Shown: positions 10,252 to 26,876 of the stretch, piece after piece
Layout: the number at the start of each line of letters is the position of its first letter
Numbering within the stretch: the first letter of the stretch is position 1
Source: an uncultured Gemmatimonadaceae bacterium
GTDB lineage: Bacteria > Gemmatimonadota > Gemmatimonadetes > Gemmatimonadales > GWC2-71-9
DNA: 64,000 bases
Assembly: GCA_964518955.1 (NCBI GenBank)
Contig: CAZFHS010000008.1
Coordinates: 1,017-65,016 of the forward strand
Direction: 5' to 3'
Position numbers and translations under genes: made by a program
The notes under the pieces: generated by a model
The model's input: only the letters and a program-made list of their open reading frames with translations
Told to the model about the DNA's origin: nothing
The model's database searches: none

Positions 10252-10599
10252 TTAGAGTCTATCTTCGTCCCGCGCTTTGGTGAGTAGCCTCTCCGCGAAC
10301 TCGATCCGGCCCGACAACTCTCTCACCTCGTCACTCTGCGAGTGGAGTACTGCTCGGATGTCATCCATCGACTCGTGCAGAAGATCGAGGGATTCCGCAA
10401 TCTTGGACATGTCGTTTGACGTACCGCCCTGCTTGAGTCGCAAGTATGTTCTCGACCCGATCCAGAACGCCGCTACGCCGCCGGCGGTCATTATCAGTGT
10501 GGGGAGAATCTCGCTCATGAAGATGATGCTGTTCAGATCACCGGGCATCTGGACCAGCATCAGGTTGGTTAGAAATAACCCGATAGGCGCCACGCTCAC
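10252..10599 (-). CDS. Hypothetical small membrane protein with C-terminal coiled coil
   Basis: Two predicted TM helices followed by a heptad-like helix (ELSGRIEFAERLL). No family recognised. Confidence 0.5.
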   Translation of the reverse strand: MSVAPIGLFLTNLMLVQMPGDLNSIIFMSEILPTLIMTAGGVAAFWIGSRTYLRLKQGGTSNDMSKIAESLDLLHESMDDIRAVLHSQSDEVRELSGRIEFAERLLTKARDEDRL

Positions 10600-10818
10600 C
10601 CCCTAACTGAGAATCGGATGTATCTACATCAGGGCGCTACTGTATTGAAGTTACTCGTGGATTCTATCGGCACAACGCGACTGCTCTGCGGATATCAGAC
10701 GGAATAAGGTGTATCCGCGACCGAACGATTACTTTGCGCATCTATGCATAGAGAAGGCTGGCGGACACCCTGCATTCCCCGGGTGTGGTTCATTTACTCA
10801 GATAAATAGTGAGGTCCG

Positions 10819-12030
10819 ATGTTCAACGTCCGTTCTCTTAAAGGTCGGTTGTGGATGGTTCTTGGTCTATTCCCGTTCATCGCAGCTTGCAGCGGTTCCG
10901 GTGGTGAGACTGGCTCAGCTGGCACCCGTGCCACTCGAGTCGAGCTCTCCGAACCCGACGCAACTTTCCCGGAGGCGTTCAGTTCGATCACCGGCATGCG
11001 GGAGTTGAGCAGCGGACGCCTATTCGTATCGGACCGCCTTGGACAGGCGCTGATGTTTGTCGACCTGGCTGCCGGAACGGCAGACACGATAGGGCGGATC
11101 GGCGGAGGCCCGGGAGAATACAGCAGCCCCGGGCCTCTCTATCCATGGCGAGGCGATTCGACTCTGCTGGTGGACATGGGCAATACACGGTTCACGCCGG
11201 TGAGTTCTGACGGCGGTTTCGGCATCAGTGCCCCCCTCATGACCCGAGACGGAGAGTCGATGAGATTTGTGTTGCCTGAGGCAGCCGACCGCCACGGCAA
11301 CGTCTATTTCCAGGCGCGCAGTTTCGGAATGGGTGCTCCTGGTGAAGACCCGCCCGACTCCGCGCGAGTAGTACGCTGGAATCCTGAGACTGGAGCTTCC
11401 GACACGGTGGCTGCTCTCACTACGCCCGAGCGGAAGATCCAGAGGTCTGGCGGAAACGTAATGATGGCTTCCATCCCATTCAGCCCCTACGATCAGTGGG
11501 CGGTATCGTGGGGCGGTGATGTTGGAGTCGCGCGTGCCGCAGGGTTCCGAATCGAGTGGTCCAGCGTGAACGGTGAACTGACTGTCGGTTCGCCGATCGA
11601 ACACCAGCCGGTTGCCATCACCCAGGACGACAAGGACGCATGGCTCGAAGCTCGAGCGAGCGCTGCCAGTGGTGGGATGTTCATAACGATGGAAGCCGGT
11701 GGTGGCGGTGGTGGGAATGTCCGCGCAAGTTCGGCGCCGAGCGGAGCTAGAATGACCGGGCCCCAGATTGCAGACGAAGATTGGCCAGAGGTTAAGCCCC
11801 CATTCCCCCCGTCAGCACTGAGTGCGACGCCGGAAGGTGAGCTATGGGTGCTGAGACACGTCGCTCACGGCGCAGTTCCTGAGTACGATGTGTTCGACGG
11901 GAACGGCGACCGTATCCGTACTGTGGTCCTCGCTGAGAACTCCCGCATAGTCGGATTCGGCAACGGTGTAGTGTACGTCGCGCGAACCGATGAAGACGAT
12001 CTGCAATGGTTGGAGCGGTATAAACGTTAG
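10819..12030 (+). CDS. Hypothetical lipoprotein, probably beta-propeller
   Basis: Lipobox-like FIAAC after a signal peptide; Gly-rich, repeat-like body. No family recognised. Confidence 0.55.
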   Translation: MFNVRSLKGRLWMVLGLFPFIAACSGSGGETGSAGTRATRVELSEPDATFPEAFSSITGMRELSSGRLFVSDRLGQALMFVDLAAGTADTIGRIGGGPGEYSSPGPLYPWRGDSTLLVDMGNTRFTPVSSDGGFGISAPLMTRDGESMRFVLPEAADRHGNVYFQARSFGMGAPGEDPPDSARVVRWNPETGASDTVAALTTPERKIQRSGGNVMMASIPFSPYDQWAVSWGGDVGVARAAGFRIEWSSVNGELTVGSPIEHQPVAITQDDKDAWLEARASAASGGMFITMEAGGGGGGNVRASSAPSGARMTGPQIADEDWPEVKPPFPPSALSATPEGELWVLRHVAHGAVPEYDVFDGNGDRIRTVVLAENSRIVGFGNGVVYVARTDEDDLQWLERYKR

Positions 12031-12032
12031 AG

Positions 12033-12048
12033 CACCTCGAACGAGGTG
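12033..12048. terminator. Small hairpin between convergent genes
   Basis: CACCTC-GAAC-GAGGTG (6-bp stem, 4-nt loop) in the 26-nt gap between two convergent stop codons. Weak, with no U-tract. Confidence 0.3.
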
Positions 12049-12056
12049 TTCGCTGC

Positions 12057-13991
12057 CTAGTTGTTTATCTCTCTAACGTTGTTCTGAATGAAATAGCGCA
12101 GCTGTTCCACTTGAGTCGGAGTGAGTTCCTCGAATTGGACCCCGCACCGGTTGATCGGCTTAGCAGGGGGGGCAGCTCCCGGATCGGTCACGATGTCTGA
12201 AACCTTCTTGCATTTGAGGTTGTCCACCGAACATCCATTGCCAGCCGCACAGACAGTCACTTCATCGTTGGGGCCCAAACTCAGTGCTGCATCCAAGTAT
12301 TTGAACGAAAGTCCAGACAGGCTGATATCCAAAAGTTTGCAGCGGTTTGAGGGATCGGATTTGGATATCACGAAAGCTCCGGTTTTCGCCGGGAACCGCT
12401 GGGTTCTTCTTCGTTCGGTGTCGCGCCCATCCAATACCCTGCGGATGATCTGGGCCAGTTGTTGCATGCCCAGCGGTTTCATGGCGAACTCGGCAACGCC
12501 CAGTTCTTTCGCATCTGCAGAGCAAAAGTTCTCGTTTAGGCCTGAGCAGAGAATGATTGGCAGCAACGGACGGATCTTCTTCATCTCTTCAGCCAGCTGT
12601 TTGCCCGTCAGGTTCGGCATGGTCATATCGGTGACAACCAAGTCGTACTGGTCCGGGTTTTCGCGGAATGTCTCTAATGCAGCACGGCTGTCTGTCGCGG
12701 CATCGACGCGGTAGCCGAGTTTCGAGACCATTTGTTTCACGATATCAGCAACCATCTCCTCATCGTCCACCAGGAGTATCCGCTCTGTTCCGGTGGGCAG
12801 AGTATCCTCTGCCGCCTTTGTGGCCTGTACAGCCTTTGCGTCTGCGATGGGAAGGAAGACTCGGAATTCCGTTTTCACATATGGCTCACTGGAGACCTCG
12901 ATGGCGCCGCCATGGTTCTGCACGATTCCGTGAACGACTGACAAGCCCATGCCGGTCCCCTCGCCAGCGCTCTTCGTAGTAAAGTAGGGGTCGAAAATCC
13001 GGTCTTTTATGGAAGTATCGATACCGTGGCCGGTATCACATACAGTCAAAGTCACATACGGTCCGGTCGCAATTCCATAACGCTCAGCAGCATCGGCATC
13101 AATCATCTGGCTGTCCAGGCTCACCTCGAGCACGCCGCCAGAAGGAACAATTGCGTGTGCTGCATTGGTGCAGAGATTGATCATGATTTGGTGAATCTGG
13201 GTCGAGTCACCACGCACCACGAACGATGCGTCGGGCAAGTTCTGTTTGATGACGATTTTGGTCGGTAGAGATGCACGGAGCAGCTTCAGGGATTCAGAGA
13301 TGATTGTTCGCAGCTCCAAGGGGATCCTTTCGGATTCGGTCTTCCTCGTGAAGCTGAGTAGTTGATTGATCATCTCCTTTGCGCGATTGCTGGCGGTCAG
13401 CACCTTGTCAACGTTCTCTCGAATCTCATTCTGTTCGGAAATGGCAGCTCTCACCAGTTCCGTGTTGCCGAGGATGATGCTGAGGATGTTGTTGAAATCG
13501 TGAGCAATCCCGCCAGCGAGTGTGCCTATTGCCTCCATTTTCTGCGACTGCCGAAGTTGTCTTTCTAGGCTCTTATTCTCTGCTTCGATTTGCCTACGTT
13601 CATCTTTGAGCTGTTTCTGTTTGAACGCGTTGCCAACTCTGATGAATAGTTCGTCGGGTTCGAACGGCTTTCTAACGTAGTCGCTGGCCCCCCTTCGTAT
13701 CGCTTCGATGGCAGAATCGAGTGAAGCATCACCAGTCATGATTATGAATACAGTGTGTACAACCTCCCGATCGAGTTCGTCCAAAATCTGATAACCGGTG
13801 AGACCGGGCATGCCGACGTCGAGTAACGCCACGTCATAAACGGAGGTCTTGAGCATCGCCAACGCTTCGATGGAGTTGTTGGTTGTCTCGATGTCGCAAC
13901 CCTGACCCATGAGTGTAGCCTTCACACTTTCGGTCATCCGCGGCTCATCATCAACAATCAACATCCTTGCGGCGTTGGCAATTTCACTCAT
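12057..13991 (-). CDS. Hybrid histidine kinase: REC - HisKA/HATPase - REC - PilZ
   Basis: REC1 (LLDVGMPG), H-box IAHDFNNIL, HATPase G-boxes (GTGMGLS), REC2 (VVTDMTMPNLTG). C-terminal PilZ with both c-di-GMP motifs intact (RRRTQR = RRxxxR; DISLSG = DxSxxG). Confidence 0.85.
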   Translation of the reverse strand: MSEIANAARMLIVDDEPRMTESVKATLMGQGCDIETTNNSIEALAMLKTSVYDVALLDVGMPGLTGYQILDELDREVVHTVFIIMTGDASLDSAIEAIRRGASDYVRKPFEPDELFIRVGNAFKQKQLKDERRQIEAENKSLERQLRQSQKMEAIGTLAGGIAHDFNNILSIILGNTELVRAAISEQNEIRENVDKVLTASNRAKEMINQLLSFTRKTESERIPLELRTIISESLKLLRASLPTKIVIKQNLPDASFVVRGDSTQIHQIMINLCTNAAHAIVPSGGVLEVSLDSQMIDADAAERYGIATGPYVTLTVCDTGHGIDTSIKDRIFDPYFTTKSAGEGTGMGLSVVHGIVQNHGGAIEVSSEPYVKTEFRVFLPIADAKAVQATKAAEDTLPTGTERILLVDDEEMVADIVKQMVSKLGYRVDAATDSRAALETFRENPDQYDLVVTDMTMPNLTGKQLAEEMKKIRPLLPIILCSGLNENFCSADAKELGVAEFAMKPLGMQQLAQIIRRVLDGRDTERRRTQRFPAKTGAFVISKSDPSNRCKLLDISLSGLSFKYLDAALSLGPNDEVTVCAAGNGCSVDNLKCKKVSDIVTDPGAAPPAKPINRCGVQFEELTPTQVEQLRYFIQNNVREINN

Positions 13992-14021
13992 TCGTTTGCT
14001 CCTTTGGTGTAGCTACCCGCA

Positions 14022-16187
14022 TTAGGAACTCACCACCGGCAAACAAATCGTGAACTGAGTCCCCGATTCGGTTTCCGGATCACAGGAGATGGTGCCACGT
14101 AACTGCCGTATAAGCCCATGTGCGATAGAGAGACCAAGTCCCTCGTGCTCAGCCTTGGATGTCACGAACGGCTGGAAGAGCCGAGCACGCACTGTGTCAG
14201 GTATGCCCGGTCCGTCATCGCGGATGATCAACTTTGCCTTGCCACCACCATTCTCGACCGAGTCGGCGGTGGCATGCTGACCGTCTCTGCCACCTTGCAC
14301 AAACTCGGTCTCAACATGGATGTTGCCGCCATTCGCAAGCGCTTCCGCTGAATTCTTGAGCAAGTTGATGACCGCCTGCTTCAAGATGTCTTTGTCTGTA
14401 AGAGTCATCGGAAGCGAAGAGCTAAGGCGCGAATGCACCTGTATGCCACCCTGATGAAAGAGATCATCTTTCATCAGGCGCAGGAGATCGCTCAACAGAG
14501 CATTTAAGTCGACGGGCGCCATAGACACCGAAGCTTCCTTCGACGACTCGACGAGCGTTGCTAGAATGCTCTTGATCCTGGTGATCTCTTCGTTGATGAT
14601 CCTGATCTCGTCATGCGCGATGTCCTGCTCAGCCAGCCTTCTGGCAAGTACTGCCAAATAGTTCTTGATGATCCCCAACGGATTGTTCACCTCGTGGACA
14701 GCGCGCCGTGTAAGAGTCACCAAAGACTTGACCGCGTCCACCGACGGTGCTCTTTCGAATGCACCCTCCGGTTTGCAGCGTTGTATCGCGCGTGCGGTGT
14801 ACCGGGAGAGCCGGTCTAGAAGCTGCTTCTGACCTGACAGGACTGCGCGGTCGGCGGCGTCGATGCCGAGGGTCATGGTTCCCACCGCTCGGTCGTCCAC
14901 AGCCAGCGGGAAGCAAACGACTCCTTCCTTTCCGAGGAATCGGACGAGCTGTTCGTCCATTATGGATATTTCCGCACCCTCGGACGCTACGAAGCAGTCG
15001 ACCACTCGCTGTTCGGTGAGTGCAAGAACTGGCGAGCTTTTGTCATACGACAGCGGTACAGCAAGTTCTCCGACGTAAGCGCAACAGCTCCCGTGCGCCC
15101 GCAATGTGGTGCCTTCAGGGTCGATCAGGAAGAACACCAAACGGTCGATATCGAAATGACCGTGCAACGTCTGCTCAACCAGTTGCAGTACATCATCTAT
15201 CTCCTCGGCGTGCAAAAGACCGTACGACAGCGTTGCCAGTAGACTGGTGTCGCGCACATGACCCGCCACCGCGGCATGCGCATCGGCGTGCGAAGGAGGC
15301 GCTTGTTCGGTATCCGTAAACGGAGTCGAGAGGTCTATGCCAAGTACCGCAACGGTTTCCGCAAAGGAGCCCAGCGCTGAGTCAACTGCTCGGTCCAGCT
15401 GCGGGCTGCTCAGTCCGAGCAAAGCCACCTCGGGACGGGCGAACGACTCCTGGTCGGGGGATTCAGATTTCAGAAGCTGATTGGCAACATATACGACTTT
15501 CACCAGCGGAAATGCCTGAGCAACGGCGCCTGCCGGGTGATGATGATAGTGAATTGCGTCGGCCAACAACGAATGACGTGGCCAGCGACGCACTAGTGCG
15601 GCCCCCACCGACGCATGATCATCGCCTACCAGGTCCTCTCCCTTGGCCTTCTTACCTTTTGCACCTGCACTACCCGACAACTGCAGCTTGTATTTGGTGG
15701 GGTAGGACGTAAGCAGCAGTAGCTTGCCAATATCATGCAGAAGCCCGGCTAGAAACGCACTTTCGGGTTGGTGAAGTCCGTGTTCCTTGCCCAGCTGCTC
15801 CGCCAGAAACCCGCATTTGACCGAATGCGCCCAGAAATCGGTGAGGTCGCCGGGGGAACAGAATGAATACGTGTCGAATACATCGAGCGTTGACGACCAT
15901 CTGACCAAATGAGCAAGAGTATCGCGGCCGATCAGCTCTGCCGCGCTGGCCACATCCGGTACTGCTGCGCCAGACTTATCCTGCGCCAGACGCATGACGT
16001 TGATGCTGAGCGCTGGATCGAGCTTGAGAACGCCCGCGAGTTCGGGAACGGCGATGGCGGGATCGTCGAGCAGCTCGAGCAGCTTGGCTGTAATGTGTGG
16101 AAGACTTGGAAGACTGTTGGTGCCTGCCAGTTGAGAGACCTGGGCGTTGTGCGGTTTTGCGAGCCGGTTTCTGTTAGTTCTGGCCAT
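14022..16187 (-). CDS. HDOD - GAF-like - histidine kinase
   Basis: HDOD signatures ([34 protein letters not shown]), H-box HEVNNPLGI, HATPase (DDGPGIP, GLGLSIA). Start uncertain: ATG at 16187 or TTG at 16211. Confidence 0.8.
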   Translation of the reverse strand: MARTNRNRLAKPHNAQVSQLAGTNSLPSLPHITAKLLELLDDPAIAVPELAGVLKLDPALSINVMRLAQDKSGAAVPDVASAAELIGRDTLAHLVRWSSTLDVFDTYSFCSPGDLTDFWAHSVKCGFLAEQLGKEHGLHQPESAFLAGLLHDIGKLLLLTSYPTKYKLQLSGSAGAKGKKAKGEDLVGDDHASVGAALVRRWPRHSLLADAIHYHHHPAGAVAQAFPLVKVVYVANQLLKSESPDQESFARPEVALLGLSSPQLDRAVDSALGSFAETVAVLGIDLSTPFTDTEQAPPSHADAHAAVAGHVRDTSLLATLSYGLLHAEEIDDVLQLVEQTLHGHFDIDRLVFFLIDPEGTTLRAHGSCCAYVGELAVPLSYDKSSPVLALTEQRVVDCFVASEGAEISIMDEQLVRFLGKEGVVCFPLAVDDRAVGTMTLGIDAADRAVLSGQKQLLDRLSRYTARAIQRCKPEGAFERAPSVDAVKSLVTLTRRAVHEVNNPLGIIKNYLAVLARRLAEQDIAHDEIRIINEEITRIKSILATLVESSKEASVSMAPVDLNALLSDLLRLMKDDLFHQGGIQVHSRLSSSLPMTLTDKDILKQAVINLLKNSAEALANGGNIHVETEFVQGGRDGQHATADSVENGGGKAKLIIRDDGPGIPDTVRARLFQPFVTSKAEHEGLGLSIAHGLIRQLRGTISCDPETESGTQFTICLPVVSS

Positions 16188-16223
16188 GATTGCGTTCAGA
16201 GTTGAAAACAATACACCAATTCA

Positions 16224-16238
16224 GCTGTGTTCGTGCCA
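16224..16238 (-). promoter_or_regulatory. Possible sigma54 -24/-12 box upstream of the HDOD-GAF-kinase gene
   Basis: Reverse strand reads TGGCACGAACACAGC. The -24 half (TGGCACG) is perfect and the GC sits at the correct spacing, but the -12 half is CAGC rather than TTGC. It lies very close to the start codon. Confidence 0.3.
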
Positions 16239-16519
16239 TCTCAGCATGAGATATGAGATACTTAGTTCGCAACTGCCAGTTGGACCTGAACTCGGCCTCC
16301 TTGTTGGCACGTGCCGCTCCGGCTCACATGCCCGGCTACCGCTAATTTGTGGACACACCCCTCCGACTACAAGTGCTTGTTTGGGACACAAGGGTACGTT
16401 TTTGGGACATTCACCTGCAGTTGGCTAGCGTCCTCGCGTCCCTCACACCCTGAAAGCGGCTGTGTAAGAGATAACCCGTGGCAGGAAGATCTTCAAGAAC
16501 GTTCGGGGTGTATGGGCTA

Positions 16520-16906
16520 CTACCGGAATTCTCCTATTAGTCTTGCCACGACGGTGTCGTGAGCAGCGCGTGCCGCGATGAGCAGTGAGGCGGAACGCGA
16601 GCTGTCACCCTCCGCTCCGGAGACTTCGAGCTGACGTAGGAGCTCCGCAAGCTGTGTTGCACCCATGCTCGCGGCAGCCGACTTGTATGCGTGCGCTGAA
16701 GATCTGACTTCTTCGGGCGCGCTGGCCTCGACGGCCGATTGAATGGCACCCATCCGAATAGGGGCATCTTCGAGAAATGCCTCTACCAGTTCGTCAATGA
16801 TGTCCTCGAGTTCAGCCTCAGCCATCGCCCGTCGGAAGTCCGCGACCTCAAAGGATGCCATCTCGTTACTGACGTCGTTCGTGACTGTCCCGGCTGTATC
16901 TGTCAT
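16520..16906 (-). CDS. Hpt (histidine phosphotransfer) domain protein
   Basis: HxxKS motif (SSAHAYKSAAASMGATQLAELLRQLE) in a roughly 120-aa helical protein. It lies 13 nt downstream of the preceding response regulator gene. Confidence 0.8.
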   Translation of the reverse strand: MTDTAGTVTNDVSNEMASFEVADFRRAMAEAELEDIIDELVEAFLEDAPIRMGAIQSAVEASAPEEVRSSAHAYKSAAASMGATQLAELLRQLEVSGAEGDSSRSASLLIAARAAHDTVVARLIGEFR

Positions 16907-16919
16907 GACGTGATTCCCT

Positions 16920-17492
16920 CTAGGTTTCTAAGGTATCGAACTGCCTCAGCTGCGGCTCGATTCGTGACTGGTAACACTGGGGGCAGATGCCGTGCGTAAA
17001 TGTTGATTCGGTGCGGCTGGATATGTAGGTCTCTACGTCTTGCCAACGGTCGTTTGCGTCGCGGATCTTTCGGCAGTACGAACAGATAGGAAGCAAAGAC
17101 TCTAGTTCCTTAACCTCCGAATACAATCCGAGTATTCGCTCTGCAACACGTACTCTGGCGGCCAGTTCATCTCTATCGAGCGGTTTTCGGATGAAGTCGT
17201 CCGCACCTGCATCCATCGCACGTAGATAACACCGCTTGCCACCTAACACGGTGAGCATGATGATGTACGTATATGCCGGTCGATCTTCCGCCCGCACGGC
17301 TCTGCATAACTCCAGGCCGTCGAGCTGAGGCATCATCCAATCCACAATCAGCAATCGGGGGTGATCTTCTGAGTAGCGTTCCCAGGCAACTGCTCCATTG
17401 TCAGTTTCAACCACCTCATGTCCGAAAGATTCGAGTGTGCTTTTCAACAGCAGCCTCGCAACTCGGTCGTCTTCGGCAATGAGGATCTTCAT
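16920..17492 (-). CDS. Response regulator: REC + C-terminal 4-Cys tail (CxxC...CxxC)
   Basis: REC with DD, acceptor D (LIVDWMMP) and K (IRKP). Tail is LPICSYCRKIRDANDRWQDVETYISSRTESTFTHGICPQCY. Start set to the ATG at 17492, preceded by AGGGGGGA. Confidence 0.85.
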   Translation of the reverse strand: MKILIAEDDRVARLLLKSTLESFGHEVVETDNGAVAWERYSEDHPRLLIVDWMMPQLDGLELCRAVRAEDRPAYTYIIMLTVLGGKRCYLRAMDAGADDFIRKPLDRDELAARVRVAERILGLYSEVKELESLLPICSYCRKIRDANDRWQDVETYISSRTESTFTHGICPQCYQSRIEPQLRQFDTLET

Positions 17493-17590
17493 TACATCCC
17501 CCCTTAGCATCGATGCTCACCTACTCCGCAAACAAAGCAGATCAGGTTGAACCAAACCCTACGTATCCCGCAAATACCCGTTTCGTCTGA

Positions 17591-17618
17591 TTATCGGCGC
17601 GTCGCCGCAGATACCTTA
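17591..17618 (-). promoter_or_regulatory. Sigma28 (FliA)-type promoter for the REC(4-Cys)/Hpt pair
   Basis: Reverse strand reads TAAG-N16-GCCGATAA (perfect -10). The -35 overlaps the TAA stop of the upstream hybrid kinase. About 100 nt upstream of the ATG at 17492. Confidence 0.55.
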
Positions 17619-19838
17619 GCTGTCCACAGGATCAGCGACTTCGGTGTGGATCCACTTCTCGAGGACTTCGACCAGAACCTGACGTTTGATTGGTTTTATC
17701 ACGTGGTCGTCCATGCCGGCTGCCAGGCACTTTTCTCTGTTGCCGTTCGTGATGTTCGCGGTCAAAGCAACGATCGGTGTACGGCATGCGGCCCCTTCTA
17801 ACTCTCGGATGGCCCGGGTAGCCTGGTATCCATCCATGGTCGGCATTTCGCAGTCCATCAGGACAATTTCGTAACAACCGTTTTGCGCCGATCGGACCGC
17901 TTCACTGCCATCGCAGGCGATATCCACGACATATCCGAGTTTCTCGAGCGTTCGTACCATCACCTTTTGATTGACCGGATTGTCCTCGGCCAGCAGTACT
18001 TTGCCCCGATACGATATTGAGGCCGCTGTGCCGGTATTCTCGCTCTCGTCGCTGTTGGCGTTGTCCGATCGCCGCTGCTTTGAGCCCAACGCAGCCACCA
18101 GACAACGCGACAGACGATCACGTCGAATCGGTTTAGGCAGACACGCAGCGAAGTCTGCATTAGTCGCGGCCATCGATTCACCACTTGCACCGATGGGTGC
18201 CATCAATACCAGACGTGCGTCCCTCAACGACGGATCCGCCAGGATCTTGCGACCGAATTCTTCGCCATTCGTCTGCTGTAGTGAGTTGTCCACCATCACA
18301 ACATCATAGGGGGCGGCTTTCTTGATGGCGCTGAGCAGCATATCGATCGCTACATCCGGCGCGTCGGCAACGTCCGCGGCCATATTCCACCCACAAAGAA
18401 GTGCCTGTAGCGATTGGCCACTCGCGGGATGATCCTCCACGATGAGTACCCGTTTCTTTGCGAATTCTCCCGTCTGCAAAGCGGGTATGGCCGCGGGTCC
18501 CTTGTGCCGCCCCATCCTGACGGTGAACCAGAAAGTGCTACCTTCGCCCAGCTGGCTCCTTACTCCAATCTCTCCAGCCATTGCCGCAACCAGGCGCTGT
18601 GAGATCACCAATCCGAGTCCGGTACCCCCGTATTTTCTGGTAGTAGAACTGTCGGCCTGCACGAAAGCCTGGAAGATTCTTTCTTGCGCATCCAAGCTCA
18701 TACCCACACCCGTGTCGCTCACCTCGCCCCGTATCGTCACAGATTCGGAATCGCTGTCTACCACATCGAACCGTGCGACTATCTCTCCGCTTTCCGTGAA
18801 CTTCACCGCGTTACCCATGAGATTCAAAACGATTTGCCGCAAGCGCCCAGGATCACCTACCAGTGTGTCCGGTATCGCCGGTGCAACACTGCTCACCAAT
18901 TCCAGCTGCTTTCCGATCGCTCGCGCAGCGATGAGGTCCGCCGTTTCTTCGACGGTCGTGCGCAGATCGAACGGCACTTCCTCGAGTTCGAATGTGCCGG
19001 CTTCGATCTTGGAGAAGTCGAGGATGTCATTAATGATGTCCAACAGCGACTCGCCAGATACGCGAATAGTTTCAACGAAGTCCCGCTGTTCTTCACTCAG
19101 GCCCGTTTCCCTGAGCAACTCGGTCATTCCGATCACGCCGTTCATCGGAGTGCGAATCTCGTGGCTCATCGTGGCGAGAAACTCACTCTTGGCGCGAGTA
19201 GCTGCCTGCGCTTCTTCATTCGAGCGTTCTAATTCGAGCGTTCGTTTGGCTACCATTCCCTCCAAGTTTTTCGCGTAGCCACTCAACGAACCATAGAGGG
19301 ACAGGTTCTCGATCGCATTTGCGCAGTCAGCAAGTACGATCGAGGTGAATTTCTGCGAGGCTTCGAGTACGTAGTTACGATCCTTTTGCACGACGCCCAT
19401 GAACATCCCGACCACCCTCGACCGGGTAGCCAAAACGTGCAACAGCACCCTACCATCCATCATCTTTCCTGGAACTATCACCGGCCGATTTTGTCTCACA
19501 GCCCACGCGAACGTTCCGGATTCGATGTGCCTCTCCAACTCATTGATAAGTCGCGGTGAGAGTTCCGTGGGATCGAGTTCGATCGGAGAAAAGTCGAAAG
19601 TATCTGCATCGGCAATCCAAAAGCCCACCGCTTCGAAGTCGACTATCGATCTGAGTGTCGACGCAGCAGAGGCACAGATCGCGGCTGGGTCTGCATGTTC
19701 TGTGAGGTCTCGACGTGACCGGAACAACGCGACCACGGAATCGAGACACTCCAGTAGCCATTTGTTCATCCGGGTGGCGCTAAACTCAGCAGACACCTCA
19801 GTTTCGGGTACCGGACGCGAGGCCGGGTTCGCTGTCAT
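17616..19838 (-). CDS. Hybrid histidine kinase: GAF-like - HisKA/HATPase - REC - REC
   Basis: H-box [14 protein letters not shown], HATPase ([15 protein letters not shown]). Two receiver domains (VVMVDNSL; [13 protein letters not shown]). ATGA overlap with the upstream HDOD gene. Confidence 0.85.
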
Positions 19839-20689
19839 TCGGATTCCTCGAGAATCGTACGAACCGCTGCCGCGTATTGTTGGTCGATGTCAGTCAGTAT
19901 GCCGGTGAGAACGTCTTCGGATAGACCTAGTCGCTCCCAAGCGAACCCGGAGAGAGGTGGCACCCACCGCTCACCGCTACTTCCCATCAGCATTGAGTGC
20001 GCCAGTATGTCTGCCAGATGAATGACTGCCACTTCGACTTGAAATCGTGTGGCACGTGCGGGCCTGTGATGATTTGACACGGGTTCTTGCAATGAAACCG
20101 GGAGATTCCAATTAGACAGCAGAGCCTCACCCACTGCTGCATGGTCGTATCCCATGACCACTTCCTCGGCCTCGTGCAGCATCATCTGTTCATCTCGCGC
20201 GTGCTCGATCGCGGTGCGCGCACCGTCTGGGTCGGACATGAATACCAGTAGCTTCCCGATATCGTGCAACAATCCCGCGACGAAGTGCCGCTCCACATTG
20301 GGCGCTCGCAACTCGGTAGCAAGTGACCTTGCGCATACCCCGCACCCAATGCTGTGCTGCCAAAAACTGGACATGTCTACCAGTTCTTGAGGTACATCCT
20401 TGAACATGTCCACAACCGATGTGGCGAGAGCTAGGTCGTGTATCTGCTGAGTGCCGACAACCGTCAACCCTTGCCTCACAGATTCGATCGTGGAGGGGAA
20501 ACCATACATGGCGCTGTTCACGAGACGCAGCAGTCTGGCCGTGAGGCCGATGTCTTCACTAATGACAGCTCCAACGTCATCTGCTGAGCTGTACGGGTCT
20601 TCCATCACCTCTACCAATCTCGTGTAGATCGCCGGTAGGGACGCGATATTCGTAGACTTACGAACGAGGTCATCGATGTTAGGCGCCAT
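19835..20689 (-). CDS. HDOD domain protein
   Basis: Full-length HDOD pattern ([56 protein letters not shown]). Confidence 0.85.
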
Positions 20690-21017
20690 TGTTGCCTCTG
20701 CCGGCTATGCGGCGCGCGCATTCGTCTAGCAAGAGCGCCACCACTGGATGATCTATGTCGCAGTGCTTGAACAGTTCTCGTGCGGCAGCGGCATGCTGTG
20801 GCTCGACCACGAGGTCCTGAGGCGTGTCCTGGGATTCCTCTGCGGGACCGTTACCACCCACGATTTCAATATTCTGCACCCCCCAGATCTTGAACAACCG
20901 CAACTCCTTCTCGGCGAGTACTTTGCCCGCCTTCGCAAGCAGTTGGCCGTTTCTGTCAACGGCATCTGAGGCTAGCTGCATACCAGGATGCGCCTGCTCT
21001 AACCGAATCACACCCAT
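20679..21017 (-). CDS. Small protein carrying a GM-x-LA-x-D module (function unknown)
   Basis: Start set to the ATG at 21017 with GAGGAG 5 nt upstream; the longer ORF reaches 21071. The N-terminal ~50 aa share an ungapped pattern with the C-terminus of the MotB-coupled protein (23952-24119). Confidence 0.55.
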   Translation of the reverse strand: MGVIRLEQAHPGMQLASDAVDRNGQLLAKAGKVLAEKELRLFKIWGVQNIEIVGGNGPAEESQDTPQDLVVEPQHAAAARELFKHCDIDHPVVALLLDECARRIAGRGNNGA

Positions 21018-21121
21018 GACGGCTCCTCGGTTTCGAGGGTTGAGCCAAGTTGACCGCGTCGCCCAGCCCATTCATTGCGACAGCCCCTCACGGCGGACGT
21101 CGCGTTCCTTGTCAACTCAAA

Positions 21122-21149
21122 TTATCGGCTGTGCTAATCAGCTCCTTTA
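21122..21149 (-). promoter_or_regulatory. Sigma28-type promoter for the HDOD/hybrid-kinase operon
   Basis: Reverse strand reads TAAAGGAG-N12-GCCGATAA. About 105 nt upstream of the ATG at 21017. Confidence 0.6.
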
Positions 21150-21181: not shown

Positions 21182-21209
21182 TCAAGCTTCTCAGCGTTCG
21201 GTCCGATAC
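21182..21209 (+). promoter_or_regulatory. Sigma28-type promoter for motAB
   Basis: TCAA-N16-TCCGATAC, about 55 nt upstream of the motA ATG. GGAGGA RBS at 21245-21250. Confidence 0.5.
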
Positions 21210-21263: not shown

Positions 21264-22124
21264 ATGCTCGCCATCATCGGCGTGTTGGTCGTCATTGTGT
21301 CAGTACTCGGCGGGTTCAGCCTGGCGGGAGGGCACCTCGCAGCGCTATTCCACGTATCGGAGTTCGTCGTAATCGGTGGTACTGCGCTGGGAACGATTAT
21401 GATATCGACGCCGAGGTCCATTCTGAAGGAGCTGTTCGCCAAACTCACGGGGGTGATCAAGCAGACTCCCTTCTCGAAGGACCTCTACCTCGAAGCTTTG
21501 AAGATGATATTCGAGTTGTTCCAAATTGCTCGGCGCGACGGGCTCGTGGCAATCGAATCGCATATCGAGCGCCCAGCAGAGAGTGAGGTATTCAAGAAGT
21601 ACTCCGCAGTGTCGTCACGTCATCATGCAATCACATTTCTGTGTGATTCCCTCCGCCTCGTCCTCGTCGGGAGTGTGCCACCCCACGATTTGGAAGCATT
21701 GATGGATGCGGACATTGATGTTCATCACGAACAGGAAGCGCGGCCTGTGAACGTGCTGCAAAAGGTCGGCGACGCCCTCCCGGGAATTGGTATCGTTGCG
21801 GCCGTGTTGGGCATCGTCGTCACGATGGGCGCGATCGCCGGGCCCGTAGAACATATCGGCGAGAAGGTGGGCGCTGCTCTGACCGGCACATTCCTCGGTG
21901 TGCTGCTTGCTTATGGCTTCGCTACTCCCCTGTCTAGTAGCATGGAACACCAGAACGCCGAGGAAGCGCGTTTTCATCATTTCATCAAAGCCAGCGTAGT
22001 GGCATTCGCAAAGGGTTTCGCTCCAATAGTCGCAACGGAATTTGCCCGCAGAGCGATCTTTGCCGAGGTGCGTCCATCGTTCGAGGAAATGGAAACCGCC
22101 TGCAAGAGCACGAGGGGCAAGTAG
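21264..22124 (+). CDS. motA: Flagellar stator protein MotA (E. coli MotA-type)
   Basis: 286 aa, collinear with MotA (MLxxxGxLVV start, LPGIGIVAAVLGIV, GTFLGVLLAYGF, ERPSFEEME). Confidence 0.9.
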   Translation: MLAIIGVLVVIVSVLGGFSLAGGHLAALFHVSEFVVIGGTALGTIMISTPRSILKELFAKLTGVIKQTPFSKDLYLEALKMIFELFQIARRDGLVAIESHIERPAESEVFKKYSAVSSRHHAITFLCDSLRLVLVGSVPPHDLEALMDADIDVHHEQEARPVNVLQKVGDALPGIGIVAAVLGIVVTMGAIAGPVEHIGEKVGAALTGTFLGVLLAYGFATPLSSSMEHQNAEEARFHHFIKASVVAFAKGFAPIVATEFARRAIFAEVRPSFEEMETACKSTRGK

Positions 22125-22128
22125 CGAC

Positions 22129-22953
22129 ATGAACAAGGACCGTGAAGCCCCGCTACGAATCATCGTGCGCAAGAAGCGCAGCGATCATGGTGGGCATCAT
22201 GGTGGTGCCTGGAAAGTCGCCTTCGCCGACTTCATGACCGCAATGTTTGCACTGTTCCTCGTGCTCTGGCTCGTCAACCAGAGTTCCGAAGTACGGTCGT
22301 CGATAGCCGGTTACTTCGCCAATCCAATGGGATTCCCGGGTGAGGCTGGAAGCTCACTGTTGCCCGCGGACGGAACGGTGGCTTCAGATATCCGCCCGGT
22401 GCTGCTGGAAACATTCAGCCTGCGTCGGCTTCAACTGCGCGAGCTCGAGGCGAGGTTGCGCACCCGAATGGACGACCTCCCCGGATTGGAGTCAGTATCG
22501 GCAAACATCGAAATGGAGATGGTTGATGAGGGATTGAGGATTCAACTGCTCGAGGATTCGTCCGGCGTATTCTTCGAGACTGGAAGCAGTGATCCGAAGA
22601 CAGAAGGGCTGCAGGTGCTGCAAATCCTCGGGACAGAGCTGGCCCTGCTTCCAAACACCGTTGTCATTGAAGGTCACACAGACTCCCGCCAGTATGCTAT
22701 GGGTAACCGGTATACCAACTGGGAGCTGAGCGCCGACCGTGCTAACGCCGCTCGCCGTATTCTCACCGCAAACGGATTGGATGACTCGAAGATTGGCCAA
22801 ATTCGTGGTCTTGCAGACCGGGAGCTGCGGGACCCTGATAACCCCTTGTCCCCCGGCAACCGACGGGTCACCATAACAATTCAAGAGATCGGGCAAGGCC
22901 AACCTCCCGACTCCAGTGCTACCTCCATTCGAGTTCGTCGGGGCGCGCCATGA
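22129..22953 (+). CDS. motB: Flagellar stator protein MotB (OmpA-like C-terminus)
   Basis: HGGAWKVAFADFMTAMFALFLVLW carries the conserved TM Asp. OmpA-like peptidoglycan-binding domain (NWELSADRANAARR). Start at the ATG at 22129, 4 nt after the motA stop. Confidence 0.9.
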   Translation: MNKDREAPLRIIVRKKRSDHGGHHGGAWKVAFADFMTAMFALFLVLWLVNQSSEVRSSIAGYFANPMGFPGEAGSSLLPADGTVASDIRPVLLETFSLRRLQLRELEARLRTRMDDLPGLESVSANIEMEMVDEGLRIQLLEDSSGVFFETGSSDPKTEGLQVLQILGTELALLPNTVVIEGHTDSRQYAMGNRYTNWELSADRANAARRILTANGLDDSKIGQIRGLADRELRDPDNPLSPGNRRVTITIQEIGQGQPPDSSATSIRVRRGAP

Positions 22954-24122
22954 CACCAGCTGTAACGGTACTGTTGGCGTGCGACGATCCCTTCGCAACG
23001 CGAGGACTCTCGGAGGAGGTGCGTCAGATCCAGGATATGGATCTAACGGTGACAATCGACGGAGATGGTGTCCTTGACCTGGTGTTGGAGCTGTCCCCCG
23101 ATCTAATCATATGCGGAGCGACAGTGGGCGACGCCGACGGCCTCGAGATTTGCCGTTCCATTAAATCCGACGGCCGTATCGCGCATGCGCACTTAGTGTT
23201 CCTCGCTCCTCATGGTGATCGGGACGCAAAAGACGATGCGCTGCAGGCGGGCATTGACGCGTTCTTGACCGTGCCGCTGGACCCCGAAGACGTACGCGCG
23301 ATGCTCAAGCAGGCTGAACGGTTGGCATCCCAACGTGACCAGATTTTACAGAGCGATGTCCGACTCAAGACCGCGGGCCGCGACACCGAGCAGCTGGTGA
23401 CTTTTCTGGTCAGCCTCATTGAGGCCCAAATGTCCGGTGCCGCCAGCCGCGGCGAGACCCTGGCGAACCTCGCAGGCAAGATCGCCGACAGGTTCAAGAT
23501 ACCGTCTCATCTACTCCAGGACCTCGATACCGCCGCACGCCTACAAGAGATCGGAAAGATCGTTGACCCGGCGAATGCGCCGCACGTGGCGCTCGAACAT
23601 AGACCTGCATGCACCGGCCCCTACTACACAGTCGTATCGGCTGCCGTGCTGGCTCAGTTGGACCTGCTTTCTGGAGCGGCTGAGGTAGTCGGCGCAATGT
23701 GCGAGAATTGGGACGGCACAGGGCTGCCTGACAGACTCCGCAAAGGACAGATCCCGCTTCGATCTAGGATTCTCAGAGTCCTCGCCGATTTCCTCGACGA
23801 AATGCCCGACCCCGACCTGCCTAAGGCGGCAAACGTCCTTTCACAGCTTAAGGCCCAAGGCGGCACTCTATACGACCCACTTGTGATAGTGCACCTTCGC
23901 TCGGTGCTCGGAGATGAGGACGGTTCAGATATAGCTGACGGCAACACCCAGCTTACTGTGGCGGACCTGAAGGAGGGTATGGTGCTCGCCGAAGACATGT
24001 TCACGAGCTCAGGGGTGATGCTCCTGGCACGCGGAGCGGTGCTGACAGATGCTACGCTGGAAGTCATCAAGTACCGCAATCAGGTGGATCCTGTCGTTTC
24101 TGGAGTGTCGGTGTGTTGCTAA
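22950..24122 (+). CDS. Pseudo-receiver + degenerate HD-GYP-like domain + GM-x-LA-x-D module; translationally coupled to motB
   Basis: ATGA overlap with motB. REC fold with Gly at the acceptor position (DLIICGATVGDADG), Ala for T/S (LAPHG) and Val for Lys (LTVPLD). HD-GYP-like block has LQEIGK in place of LHDIGK and MCENWDGTGLP in place of HHERWDGSGYP. Confidence 0.75.
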   Translation: MTPAVTVLLACDDPFATRGLSEEVRQIQDMDLTVTIDGDGVLDLVLELSPDLIICGATVGDADGLEICRSIKSDGRIAHAHLVFLAPHGDRDAKDDALQAGIDAFLTVPLDPEDVRAMLKQAERLASQRDQILQSDVRLKTAGRDTEQLVTFLVSLIEAQMSGAASRGETLANLAGKIADRFKIPSHLLQDLDTAARLQEIGKIVDPANAPHVALEHRPACTGPYYTVVSAAVLAQLDLLSGAAEVVGAMCENWDGTGLPDRLRKGQIPLRSRILRVLADFLDEMPDPDLPKAANVLSQLKAQGGTLYDPLVIVHLRSVLGDEDGSDIADGNTQLTVADLKEGMVLAEDMFTSSGVMLLARGAVLTDATLEVIKYRNQVDPVVSGVSVCC

Positions 24123-24215: not shown

Positions 24216-24983
24216 GTGCCGGCAATGTTGGAACCCGATAAACTCACGTCATATCTGTCTGGGTTGAGCAACGACCAGATCCGAGACATGCTGGCCAAAT
24301 TGGATCGCACCAACCAAGGGCACAGCATGTTTAGAGGAGTTGCACACGACCTCAGCAATGCCTCACAGGCGCTTTCCATGGGAGCGCCCGCGGTTCAGGC
24401 CGGAGATATCGAAGCCGAGAAATGGTTGTCGATGACGCATTGGGTTGACGAGAAGATGAACCGCGCCGCTGCAGTAGCGCGTGACTTTGGAACTCTCGGA
24501 GCCGACGAAGAACATCCTGTCAGCGTTCATGAGGTCGTCAGCACGGTGTTTGATTGGCAGCAACTTCAACGAGCACAACCGGTCGGCAACATCCAATGTC
24601 AGATGGCGCCACACATGCGCCCAGTTCGAGCTTCAGATCGACGACTCCGCCAGATCCTTCTCGCGTTGATTGCCAATTCCAAGGAATCGATTGAGGATCA
24701 GCAGGAAGCAAAGATACTGCTGGAGGCAAATCCAACGGACGGCGGAGTGACAATAGCAGTAGAAGACTCCGGCTCCGGCATCGATCCCGACATTAGAGCC
24801 AAGGTTTTCGACCCATTTTTCACCACAAAGGAGCCTGAGCTACATGTGGGCCTCGGTTTGACGGTGGCTCACGCATCAGCAGAGAGTTGGGGTGGAAGTC
24901 TCACTATCGATGAGCCGAAGGGCGGCGGCACCAGGGCGGAGCTGCTCCTGCCCTACTGGTCCAATCAACCGTCCACTGCGTAG
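24216..24983 (+). CDS. Minimal soluble histidine kinase (DHp + HATPase only)
   Basis: H-box FRGVAHDLSNASQAL; N/G1/F/G2 boxes (LIANSKES, DSGSGID, FDPFFTTK, GLGLTVA). The start could instead be the ATG at 24225. Confidence 0.7.
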   Translation: MPAMLEPDKLTSYLSGLSNDQIRDMLAKLDRTNQGHSMFRGVAHDLSNASQALSMGAPAVQAGDIEAEKWLSMTHWVDEKMNRAAAVARDFGTLGADEEHPVSVHEVVSTVFDWQQLQRAQPVGNIQCQMAPHMRPVRASDRRLRQILLALIANSKESIEDQQEAKILLEANPTDGGVTIAVEDSGSGIDPDIRAKVFDPFFTTKEPELHVGLGLTVAHASAESWGGSLTIDEPKGGGTRAELLLPYWSNQPSTA

Positions 24984-24994: not shown

Positions 24995-26359
24995 TCAGAC
25001 CATCCTCAACAACTCTGTCACCATTTCGTCGGCAATTGTTACGAGTCGAGACGCTGCGGCGAACGCCTGCTGCTGCGCTATCAGCATAATCATCTCTTCG
25101 TCGACGTTCACACCGTTCGAGCTGGCACGCATCATCTGAGCTCGATCGACCATGGTTTCGTGTACTGCCGCAGTCTGTTGCGCATTTAGAACCGTAGACC
25201 CGAAGGATGTGACCGTACTCGTATAGAAATCACCGAACTCACTGCCGCCGAGCGCCGCAATGGACGTCGATCGCAATGCTGCGATCTGTAGCGCAACATC
25301 TCCGTCTCCAGCGGCGGTCGTACTACCGGCGGCGATTTCATCGACGGAATTCTCAACCGCTGCAGACAAGCTTATGGTGTGAGCGGTCACACCTGCTGGG
25401 TCGAAGAAGTCCACGTTGGTTGCACCGCTTGCAGTGAACCCACCGTTGTGAATGGCATTCACTTCCGTCACCAGTGCTTCTGCGAACTCGTCTAGGCTAC
25501 TGCGCAGCCCCTGAAGCTCAACGTTCAATACCTCTGTCATAGCAAGCAGGCTACCAGATCTAGGATCTACATCGCCGCCGCCGACAACCCCTACGCCGGT
25601 TCCACCTCCTGCCAAAACGCGCACTTCCAGAGTTTGCGTCATGCCTCCATCCACCAAAAGAGTGTCTCCTGCGGCGACTCCTACGGTGCCATCGTCGCGC
25701 TGAAGCACCCTCACCCCCATCGACTCTGAAAGCTGATCGATCAACACGTCGCGCCGATCCTCCAGATCGGGCGCCGACTGCGTAGAACCGCCCGACGCAA
25801 GGATCAACTGGTTCAGCCTGGCTATCTCGGAGGTAACGCTGTTCACGTCTTCAACAGTGGCGTTCATCTCGGCGAATGCATTGCGCTCCGTTTCTACGAT
25901 GTTCTCATCCAAGAGGTGCAGCTGATCTTCCAGCCGGCGCGCGTGTTGCTGCACTAACCCACGATGCACACTGCTCGAAGGATCGTTCGCAAGCTCACTG
26001 AAGGCATTGAACATCCCGTCTAACGCTGCACCGATGCCGTACTCTGACGGTTCGTTGATGGCAGCTTCGACCTGGCCAAGGAAATAGCCAAGTGTTTGCG
26101 AGTGGCCCAGCAAACCAGATTCTCTACGCAGGCTGGAGTCGTGCAGCCAATCACGAATTCGGGTTATGCCCGTATCTGACACACCACGCCCCATTGGCCC
26201 CAACAGCGATGCCGACGGATCGGCAGCCGCAAGGTCCAGACGCTGCCGAGAGTACCCTGGCGTCATCGCATTTGCCACGTTATGCCCGGTCACGTCGAGA
26301 GCCCTCTGATGCGTAATGAGGGCGCTACGCGCGATGCCGAGAAGACTGATCAGTGTCAT
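24995..26359 (-). CDS. flgK: Flagellar hook-associated protein 1 FlgK
   Basis: N-terminus LLGIARSALITHQRALDVTGHNVANAMTPGYSRQ; C-terminus GVNVDEEMIMLIAQQQAFAAASRL. Both are typical of FlgK. Confidence 0.9.
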   Translation of the reverse strand: MTLISLLGIARSALITHQRALDVTGHNVANAMTPGYSRQRLDLAAADPSASLLGPMGRGVSDTGITRIRDWLHDSSLRRESGLLGHSQTLGYFLGQVEAAINEPSEYGIGAALDGMFNAFSELANDPSSSVHRGLVQQHARRLEDQLHLLDENIVETERNAFAEMNATVEDVNSVTSEIARLNQLILASGGSTQSAPDLEDRRDVLIDQLSESMGVRVLQRDDGTVGVAAGDTLLVDGGMTQTLEVRVLAGGGTGVGVVGGGDVDPRSGSLLAMTEVLNVELQGLRSSLDEFAEALVTEVNAIHNGGFTASGATNVDFFDPAGVTAHTISLSAAVENSVDEIAAGSTTAAGDGDVALQIAALRSTSIAALGGSEFGDFYTSTVTSFGSTVLNAQQTAAVHETMVDRAQMMRASSNGVNVDEEMIMLIAQQQAFAAASRLVTIADEMVTELLRMV

Positions 26360-26363
26360 CAGT

Positions 26364-26873: not shown

Positions 26874-26876
26874 CGG

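Follow-up and report, generated by a model that had tools for sequence, protein, structure and literature searches.

Proteins with an HDOD domain are widespread in bacteria, and the few that have been studied disagree with one another. Mutants alter motility in several species (PMC11813219, PMC11004494, PMC6543031), with knock-outs described for GsmR of Xanthomonas, Cj0248 of Campylobacter, and proteins of several Pseudomonas species (PMC11813219, PMC6543031, PMC11004494). SadB, whose pocket is occluded, is reported to bind no ligand and to act as an adaptor in the proteolysis of AmrZ (PMC12075610), and DVU0330 has only weak, generic phosphodiesterase activity. A mechanistic role is not established (PMC6543031), in agreement with an earlier, sequence-only reading of the DNA described here, which had credited HDOD with no established biochemical activity. 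Here, we report a seven-gene, minus-strand island of HDOD, histidine kinase, receiver (REC), histidine phosphotransfer (Hpt), and PilZ proteins beside the motAB stator operon of an uncultured Gemmatimonadaceae bacterium (assembly GCA_964518955.1, contig CAZFHS010000008.1, positions 1,017 to 65,016 of the forward strand; these 64,000 nucleotides [nt] are the window throughout).

In enteric bacteria, the class 3, FliA (sigma-28)-dependent genes comprise motAB-cheAW, tar-cheRBYZ, ycgR, and pdeH/yhjH, read from TAAA-N15-GCCGATAA-type promoters. Signaling proteins, including PilZ and cyclic di-GMP (c-di-GMP)-related ones, are expressed there with the stator genes and act only after the flagellum has been built, and the island appears alike. 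It differs in its components (HDOD, hybrid kinase, Hpt, and a receiver with a four-cysteine tail, REC-4Cys), in a local −35 of TCAAG/TAAAG, and in that its FliA dependence is read from sequence.

We favor, at slightly better than even chances, an island made of two independently conserved, wholly cytoplasmic two-component modules, of which module A (G1 to G5 below), conserved across Gemmatimonadales, would be a late sigma-28 His-Asp-His-Asp phosphorelay with a role in tuning swimming after flagellar assembly. What would be new is a phosphorelay of the late flagellar class whose accessory sensor pair is unusual and whose output domain is unclassified. The locus gives a defined, widely conserved set of HDOD partners (a DUF3391-like protein, a GAF hybrid kinase, an Hpt protein, and a 4-Cys regulator), so that the link between HDOD and motility becomes one of specific questions about binding and phosphotransfer; the locus is chiefly useful for approaching HDOD function. 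The promoter signature would put the module among the late flagellar genes throughout Gemmatimonadota, where experimental genetics of motility hardly exists. The literature searched contained nothing linking HDOD to FliA-dependent promoters, DUF3391-like partners, or Gemmatimonadota flagella.

Gene content of the island

The seven minus-strand genes (12057-21017) were named G1 to G7, and loci in relatives were given L-numbers.

20679-21017, minus strand: G1, 113-amino-acid DUF3391-like/BBM2-like small protein with a GM-x-LA-x-D motif
19835-20689, minus strand: G2, stand-alone HDOD protein (Pfam HDOD E 1.5e-64, 217.5 bits against a cut-off of 22.9; HD E 7.6e-10)
17616-19838, minus strand: G3, GAF-HisKA-HATPase_c-REC-REC hybrid kinase (Pfam HisKA E 2.1e-25, HATPase_c E 7e-26)
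16920-17492, minus strand: G4, REC with a 4-Cys C-terminal tail (Pfam REC E 5e-26)
16520-16906, minus strand: G5, stand-alone Hpt (Pfam Hpt E 9.5e-12)
14022-16187, minus strand: G6, HDOD-GAF-HisKA-HATPase_c kinase with HDOD as its N-terminal domain (Pfam HDOD 128.8 bits against 22.9)
12057-13991, minus strand: G7, 644-amino-acid REC-HisKA-HATPase_c-REC-PilZ hybrid (PilZ at residues 526-635, 26.2 bits against a cut-off of 22.5)

Pfam agreed gene by gene with the domain list of the sequence-only reading and bore out its totals of three kinase cores, five receivers, one Hpt, two HDOD domains, and one PilZ. The GAF matches (GAF_3) of G3 and G6 were weak and below the Pfam cut-off; the G3 ortholog of L013 passed it (36.9 bits). 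All phospho-acceptor motifs are present (residues read directly), and all seven proteins lack membrane-spanning segments. The ATGA overlap of G2 and G3, given earlier, was read directly in the sequence, where G1 was also seen to overlap G2 by 11 nt and G4 to be followed by G5 after 13 nt. A scan of the island for sigma-70 promoters and terminators gave a count below chance, with no site on the coding strand. These genes, domains, and catalytic residues, together with the boxes, their conservation, and the fusions and neighborhoods described below, are direct observations.

Sigma-28-type boxes

The fliC promoter of the window reads TCAAGTTC-N11-GCCGATAA, so the local −35 was taken as TCAAG/TAAAG. 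A strict box pattern built on this reading, T[AC]A[AG]G-N14/15-[GT]CCGAT[AC]N, matched eight sites (0.225 expected from Markov simulations), all of them upstream of, and oriented to, a gene; GCCGATAA by itself was counted five times in the window against 1.44 expected. The eight sites are given here, followed by fliA, whose product is the factor expected to read them.

21122-21149, minus strand: P1, TAAAGGAG-N12-GCCGATAA, about 105 nt upstream of G1
17591-17618, minus strand: P2, TAAGGTAT-N12-GCCGATAA, which overlaps the stop codon of G3 and stands about 99 nt ahead of G4
21182-21209, plus strand: divergent motA box, TCAAGCTT-N12-TCCGATAC, kept in L001 and L012
54830-54856, plus strand: fliC box
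56641-56668, plus strand: box ahead of a 103-amino-acid flgM-like open reading frame (ORF) at 56750-57061 (Pfam FlgM E 0.0024, below cut-off)
60958-60984, plus strand: second-stator box, TAAAG-N14-GCCGATCT
60913-60939, minus strand: PAS-kinase operon box, TCAAG-N14-GCCGATCC
62969, minus strand: box ahead of a small ORF with no family match
31565-32374, minus strand: fliA (sigma-28), NCBIfam FliA_WhiG 237.9 bits against a cut-off of 189.6

Both island boxes lie on the coding strand at the positions first proposed for them; the spacing between the 8-mers is N12 in both, against the TAAG-N16 first given for P2. The sequence-only reading had also seen this motif class ahead of fliC, flgM, and both stator operons, and strict-pattern sites were found at each, with the flgM-like ORF in the place of flgM.

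In several relatives the boxes are kept while the DNA around them diverges. L001 retains P1 and P2 at all specified positions with different spacers: both P1 8-mers are identical and only about 5 of the 12 spacer bases match. The counterparts of P2 read TAAGGCCT-N12-GCCGATAA in L001 and TAAAGCAT-N12-GCCGATAA in L056, with unrelated spacers. The G3-G4 intergenic region is 54% identical to that of L001, against 66-78% for coding DNA (global pairwise intergenic identities [63%, 71%] were used; the MAFFT mean column identities [79%, 86%] overstated conservation). In L056, the block G4-G5-G6-G7 adjoins fliA and flgN in place of G3, and the box still stands ahead of the G4 ortholog. In L047/48 and L049/50 (HDOD 62% and 60% identical), benzoyl-CoA-reductase-like, Asn-synthase, Mla, and sigma-70 genes surround the core; G1 has non-flagellar neighbors there and still follows TAAAG-N15-TCCGATAC or TAAAGGAT-N11-GCCGATAC. 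L046 has a box analogous to P1 ahead of G1, and L047 has another, at the P2-equivalent site, ahead of a separate Hpt gene. About 17 further Gemmatimonadales loci have TCAAG-N15-GCCGATA[CGT] at the head of a co-oriented gene run with the orthologous core. Because boxes survive in relatives while spacers diverge, even where flagellar neighbors are missing, the earlier proposal of sigma-28 wiring is strongly backed for G1-G3 and G4-G5, with the boxes fully kept in L001, before G4 in L056, and before G1 in L047/L049. Sigma-28 control of G1-G5 thus appears well supported, and module A would be made only upon sigma-28 release.

Other features of the boxes were noted. The fifth exact GCCGATAA (55847-55854, minus strand), antisense inside flbT, has no −35 partner and is probably a chance occurrence. 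The ORF downstream of the box at 62969 was rejected as flgM since it has no family match, the flgM-like ORF being that at 56750-57061. The stretch 62761-62996 (minus strand) includes a perfect box, TCAAGCCT-N12-GCCGATAA, about 7 nt upstream of the ATG ATG that opens a 66-amino-acid ORF; this ORF had no family match and may be a leaderless late flagellar gene. The G1 5′ untranslated region (21018-21115, minus strand) holds CAAGGAACGCG just 3′ of the −10 and GGTCAACTTGGCTC, both conserved with L001, and these elements might be putative GGA-type sites for post-transcriptional control. A small hairpin in it, CCTCG-AAAC-CGAGG, overlaps the ribosome-binding site; the region folds no better than shuffles (z-score 0.17). 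In L012, the motA-HDOD intergenic region (3222-3345) carries overlapping divergent boxes, TCAAG-N15-TCCGATAC and TGAAG-N14-GCCGATAC, and the first gene after the divergent promoter of motA is an extra HDOD paralog.

Module A

G3 has the H-box SHEIRTP and a second receiver (residues 614-726) with EDN, MDCEMP, LTAN, and KP. Its best NCBIfam matches were BarA (485 bits), TorS, LetS, LuxQ, and ArcB; every score fell below the family cut-off, so G3 is taken as an ortholog of no named system. With BarA/GacS, TorS-TorR, ArcB-ArcA, and LuxQ-LuxU-LuxO it shares HisKA, HATPase, and a C-terminal receiver, an Hpt that is separate or fused, and a terminal receiver. It departs from BarA/TorS-type relays in being cytoplasmic, in its input (GAF plus the coupled G1/HDOD pair), and in an extra, partly degenerate receiver; moreover, the Hpt is split off here with its own sigma-28 box, and the 4-Cys domain of G4 replaces the DNA-binding domain.

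The phospho-His of G5 lies in SAHAYKS, and the protein gave weak TorS, LuxU, and ArcB Hpt matches. Since Hpt is fused to the C terminus of the kinase orthologs in the more distant relatives L013, L051, L052, and L053, G5 is probably the cognate Hpt of G3. The start of G4 at 17492 is supported by L001. The G4 receiver has the canonical D, T, and K and scored best with PhoB/PleD-type regulators, not CheY. Its tail of about 50 residues (CxxC...W...HGICPxC; window 16920-17100) is nearly invariant, reading LLPICSYCKRIRDE..W..VE.Y...RT.AQF.HGICP.CY, and is a candidate new zinc-binding output domain of response regulators; a single-sequence structure model had a predicted local distance difference test score (pLDDT) of 46, too low for use. 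In 25 loci (e.g., L013, 9032-9205) the REC-4Cys tail and the G1-HDOD-kinase core are conserved together, which makes G4 the likely terminal regulator, and the pair of REC-4Cys and Hpt is also found in L001, L053, and L056.

Four things are inferred: which way phosphate moves, what G1/G2 do, any cross-talk between modules, and the final target. G3 would autophosphorylate on the H-box His, and the phosphoryl group would pass to its own C-terminal receiver and then to the G5 Hpt. A final transfer would take it from G5 to the receiver of G4, whose conserved 4-Cys output domain probably binds zinc. The relay had been described as branched and as controlling the motor; both would go beyond the conserved core, which reads as a linear four-step relay.

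G1 starts at 21017; a longer, 130-amino-acid ORF was not supported, as L001 has no upstream ATG and an indel there. The G1 family comprises 755 representatives (E ≤ 1e-3), mostly stand-alone and about 110-120 amino acids long, and G12 and M13, near-invariant in the family, belong to the GM-x-LA-x-D motif named in the sequence-only reading. Five members of 411-426 amino acids each are G1-HDOD fusions. G1 itself had no Pfam match above threshold; DUF3391 (PF11871) was the sole Pfam family recurrently matched by members (17 of 91, weakly, best E 1e-4). An AlphaFold2 model of G1 (pLDDT 72.7) has strands and a short helix, then two helices. A search with G1 against PDB gave only a chance match. The family profile matched RNA polymerase beta repeats (E 2.8e-4), which would correspond to the "beta-beta-prime module 2" (BBM2) of Iyer, Koonin, and Aravind.

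The closest described architecture is that of the Bd1817 family of DUF3391-HD-GYP phosphodiesterases, and almost all DUF3391 proteins carry HD-GYP (Galperin and Chou, 10.1101/2021.11.05.467447). In that family a small module of strands and two helices, with a conserved Gly and Met, stands ahead of an HD-superfamily domain, and G1, by its predicted secondary structure and the near-invariant Gly and Met of its own family, would be a similar module. The partner of G1 differs, being HDOD rather than HD-GYP, and is encoded here by a separate, overlapping gene and fused elsewhere.

G2 aligned to PDB 3HC1, a di-iron HDOD protein of Geobacter, with E 5.7e-24 and with H / HD / H / HH kept (3hc1_A: HS, HD, H, HH; metal ligands as described in PMC12075610), and on this alignment its HDOD metal site is intact. 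DVU0330 and 3HC1 likewise retain HD-type metal residues; GsmR lacks the catalytic His. Orthologs of G2 number in the thousands at ≥50% identity, and in a collection of species-level genomes the proteins nearest to it come without exception from uncultured Gemmatimonadota metagenome-assembled genomes (Gemmatimonadaceae, Gemmatimonadales; best, 81% identity). GsmR (REC-HDOD), Cj0248, PSPTO_4229, PFL_0554/PFL_5871, and SadB have in common with this system an HDOD domain and a genetic link to motility; none is described as sigma-28 dependent, coupled to a DUF3391-like protein, or paired with a hybrid kinase.

Gene fusion (G1 to HDOD elsewhere, HDOD to a GAF kinase in G6) and coupled translation point to a functional chain from G1 through HDOD and GAF to the kinase, with HDOD on the input side. 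Because they are coupled to G3, and because G1 and HDOD are fused elsewhere, G1 and G2 would most likely work together as a two-part accessory sensor and set G3 activity, which would parallel the DUF3391-HD-GYP architecture.

Genomic context and competing explanations

Synteny was assessed by tblastn of the window proteins against 45 loci. The recurrent core (REC-4Cys gene, G1, HDOD, and GAF hybrid kinase) was present in >20 loci; G5, G6, and G7 were found by this search in L001 only. In L013 and L053 the order is CheB, CheR, CheX, PilZ, a sigma-28 box, REC, REC, CheB, CheR, REC-4Cys, (Hpt), G1, HDOD, GAF-HK-REC-Hpt, and PAS-HK-REC-Hpt (HK, histidine kinase), the run starting upstream with a methyl-accepting chemotaxis protein (MCP) in L053 and a globin-PAS protein in L013. 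L051 has REC, G1, HDOD, HK-REC-Hpt, REC-4Cys, FapA, HEAT, CheR, CheY, CheY, CheZ, and CheA; L052 has CheW, G1, HDOD, HK-REC-Hpt, REC-GGDEF, and MCP. The proposed linkage to motility genes was borne out, about 26 of the 33 loci with the core having che or mot genes no more than 10 kb away (tblastn and annotated contexts); L052 had no che/mot matches in the 10-kb screen, yet has CheW and MCP genes by Pfam. Adjacency to motAB, by contrast, was limited to the window, L001, and L012. The absence of CheA, CheW, and MCP noted earlier holds for the seven island genes and for the other window genes scanned; as a general state it fails, since most relatives have the core inside CheB/CheR/CheX/PilZ operons, some with CheA, and the absence is on this comparison a lineage-specific state. 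Late expression and the CheB/CheR/CheX/PilZ operons of relatives make post-assembly tuning of swimming, through the stator, the motor, or chemosensory adaptation, the most likely role of module A.

Several points weigh against a late phosphorelay of this kind. P2 has a weaker −35 (TAAGG), and the N12 spacer of the island boxes is one base longer than the N11 of the window's fliC promoter. In seven loci with the core (L005, L012, L021, L024, L032, L051, and L052) no box fits the pattern, 7 of 33 have no che/mot genes within 10 kb (L021, L023, and L046-L050), and the core-bearing loci are phylogenetically related, so that such counts are not of independent events. The first receiver of G3 keeps its Asp and has Ala at the Thr/Ser position. 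The G4 tail had no match in Pfam, NCBIfam, or PDB. Finally, a sensor role for G2 is not assured, given that the SadB HDOD is reported as an adaptor that binds no ligand.

The sequence-only reading had inferred from the seven genes a branched phosphorelay, integrated with c-di-GMP, that controls the motor or a late assembly step. Spelled out, all seven would form one unit in which three kinases feed one Hpt and several receivers, with c-di-GMP input through PilZ, membership of the sigma-28 regulon, and direct action on the adjacent MotAB. The genes are co-oriented and the coding strand holds no terminator-like site, so that read-through from P1/P2 into G6-G7 is possible; the block G4-G5-G6-G7 is intact in L001 and L056, divergent sigma-28 boxes are shared with motA, and a second HDOD two-component operon in the window is likewise paired with the second stator operon. 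We nonetheless consider one seven-gene relay unlikely. G6 and G7 form a free-standing pair in Desulfosarcina widdelii and L055, where neither flagellar genes nor boxes lie nearby; the G1-G3 core recurs in >25 loci without them, and does so together with the REC-4Cys gene and with or without Hpt, and motAB adjacency is limited to three lineages. The kinase cores belong to different subfamilies (G3 BarA-like, G6 AtoS/NtrB-like), and a 332-nt spacer with conserved blocks of its own separates G5 from G6.

Recurrence alone in Desulfosarcina widdelii and L055 marks G6-G7 as a separate conserved pair, module B, which has no sigma-28 box of its own. The HDOD-kinase gene is directly upstream of the G7 ortholog in L054, L055, and L056, and a large spermine-synthase-like gene adjoins the pair in L054 and L055. 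The H-box of G6 is HEVNNPL. In G7 the PilZ motifs RRTQR (RxxxR) and DISLSG (DxSxxG) are intact, from which the domain is predicted to be c-di-GMP competent. G6 would probably phosphorylate the N-terminal receiver of G7, whose kinase, second receiver, and PilZ domain would combine phosphorylation with c-di-GMP. The PilZ motor effectors YcgR, FlgZ, DgrA, and MotI are small stand-alone brakes. G7 resembles them in having an intact PilZ encoded near stator genes and differs in that the domain is C-terminal in a 644-amino-acid REC-kinase-REC protein, an architecture that in Desulfosarcina lies away from flagellar genes. Among kinases, G7 matched CckA (about 1e-80 to 1e-88), VirA-like kinases, and the LvrB "hybrid response regulator" (2.8e-52), and G6 matched LvrB (1.4e-18), all far below cut-offs; Leptospira LvrA/LvrB and Caulobacter CckA offer a REC ahead of the kinase core (LvrB), as in G7, and lack HDOD and PilZ. 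Full-length G7 orthologs of about 640 amino acids are 47-75% identical and include Desulfosarcina proteins, which at about 50% identity are the nearest full-length relatives outside the lineage. Over G7 (12001-14000) the GC content falls to 52.6%, against 57-59% in the flanks, and the two observations together hint at lateral transfer of module B.

The G5-G6 spacer (16188-16519, minus strand) is 63% identical overall to that of L001, with blocks conserved in L001 and partly in L056, and is a candidate separate promoter or leader for G6-G7. It contains a direct repeat, TGTCCCAAA twice, and GTGTCCACAAA, with conserved blocks CGTTCTTGAAGATC...GCCACGGGTTATCTCTTAC and CTGGCAGTTGCGA. Its RNA fold was no better than shuffles (z-score 0.09). 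Rfam gave nothing in the whole window at gathering thresholds and nothing in 16100-17700 at E ≤ 1, and for want of an Rfam match the spacer was judged to contain no known RNA, c-di-GMP riboswitches included; a sigma-54 site, TGGCAGTTGCG, was rejected for its wrong GG-to-GC spacing.

Module A might instead be an accessory arm of the chemosensory pathway, in which Hpt-bearing kinases feed or drain CheY-like/CheB receivers and the che linkage has been lost in the lineage of the window. CheA carries an Hpt domain of its own, P1, and the relatives lend this some substance: in L013 and L053 a sigma-28-headed, co-oriented run joins CheB, CheR, REC-4Cys, G1, HDOD, and several HK-REC-Hpt genes, the core is next to CheR, CheY, CheY, CheZ, and CheA in L051 and to CheW and MCP genes in L052, and CheA homologs are near it in L005, L024, and L032. 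The module has no adjacent che genes in the window, L001, L047, and L049, however, the scanned genes of the window include no MCP, CheA, or CheW, and the G4 receiver scores best against PhoB/PleD-type regulators, not CheY. We hold such an arm to be improbable, to about the same degree as the single relay.

Less probable again is a stator-coupled sensor. Both stator operons of the window, one MotAB-type and one PomAB/MotPS-type, are divergently paired with an HDOD two-component operon. The second such operon, on the minus strand and divergent from the second stator operon (61058-62700, plus strand), encodes a PAS-kinase (59568-60833), REC-HDOD (58372-59571), and REC-GGDEF (57145-58200); back-to-back sigma-28-like boxes occupy the intergenic region, so that motAB and the island are matched by a second pair arranged in the same way. 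G1/HDOD might sense a motor-related signal (metal, redox, nucleotide, or ion) and, via the phosphorelay and REC-4Cys with the PilZ kinase as second input, govern stator engagement or choice. If true, HDOD would gain its first mechanistic role and response regulators a new class of output; a functional pairing would bear on stator choice in bacteria with two stator sets.

Very improbable, finally, is a general cytoplasmic redox, metal, or stress sensor whose boxes are not functional promoters and whose flagellar adjacency is coincidental, for which one may cite the N12 spacing against the canonical N11, the position of P2 partly inside the G3 coding sequence, the relatives without a box or motility neighbors, and the fit of the HDOD di-metal site and GAF domains to redox or small-molecule sensing, and against which stand the eight correctly oriented strict boxes where 0.225 were expected, their perfect retention while spacers and intergenic DNA diverge, their persistence ahead of G1 after its move to non-flagellar neighborhoods, and the che or mot neighbors of most core-bearing loci.

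Neighboring genes

The flagellar region of the window comprises flgF, flgG, flgA, flgH, flgI, a rod-binding protein, flgN, and flgK (24995-31099); fliA, flhG, and flhF (31565-34084); and flgL, fliC, flbT, and flaF (53891-56584), along with the two stator operons (21264-22953 and 61058-62700). Between the island and flgF lie the following genes.

21264-22124, plus strand: motA of stator 1 (Pfam MotA_N, MotA_ExbB)
22042-22953, plus strand: motB of stator 1 (Pfam MotB_plug, OmpA)
22950-24122, plus strand: third gene of the motAB operon, REC with a degenerate HD-GYP and a C-terminal G1-like module (Pfam HD_5, REC)
24216-24983, plus strand: 255-amino-acid kinase-like protein with HATPase_c (Pfam; AtoS-like over residues 38-250)

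The true start of motB is probably downstream of the listed TTG, the alignment with L001 beginning only at residue 30. The third gene, kept after motB in L001 and L012, matched the NCBIfam NosR-family REC phosphodiesterase (E 1.2e-40, 139.9 bits, under the 400-bit cut-off). It departs from the HD-GYP catalytic motifs, with QE for HD, CENWDGTGLP for HHExxDGxGYP, and GLP for GYP, and its receiver seems to lack the phospho-Asp (LIICG). The GM-x-LA-x-D module recurs at its C terminus, where it reads LKEGMVLAEDMF...LLARG. Pfam did not detect HisKA in the kinase-like protein; a 251-amino-acid counterpart adjoins the G4-G7 block of L056.

Downstream of fliC lie flbT and flaF (55807-56584, plus strand), flagellin translation regulators chiefly known from Alphaproteobacteria. 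FlbT scored below its NCBIfam cut-off (E 1.2e-35, 122.4 bits against 153 bits) and FlaF above (E 7.3e-33, 113.1 bits against 91 bits). At the other end of the island, between it and an M20 peptidase gene, are two ORFs with no confident family (10252-12030), of 115 amino acids (minus strand) and 403 amino acids (plus strand); the latter is convergent with G7, and a short hairpin, CACCTC-GTTC-GAGGTG, lies between their stop codons.

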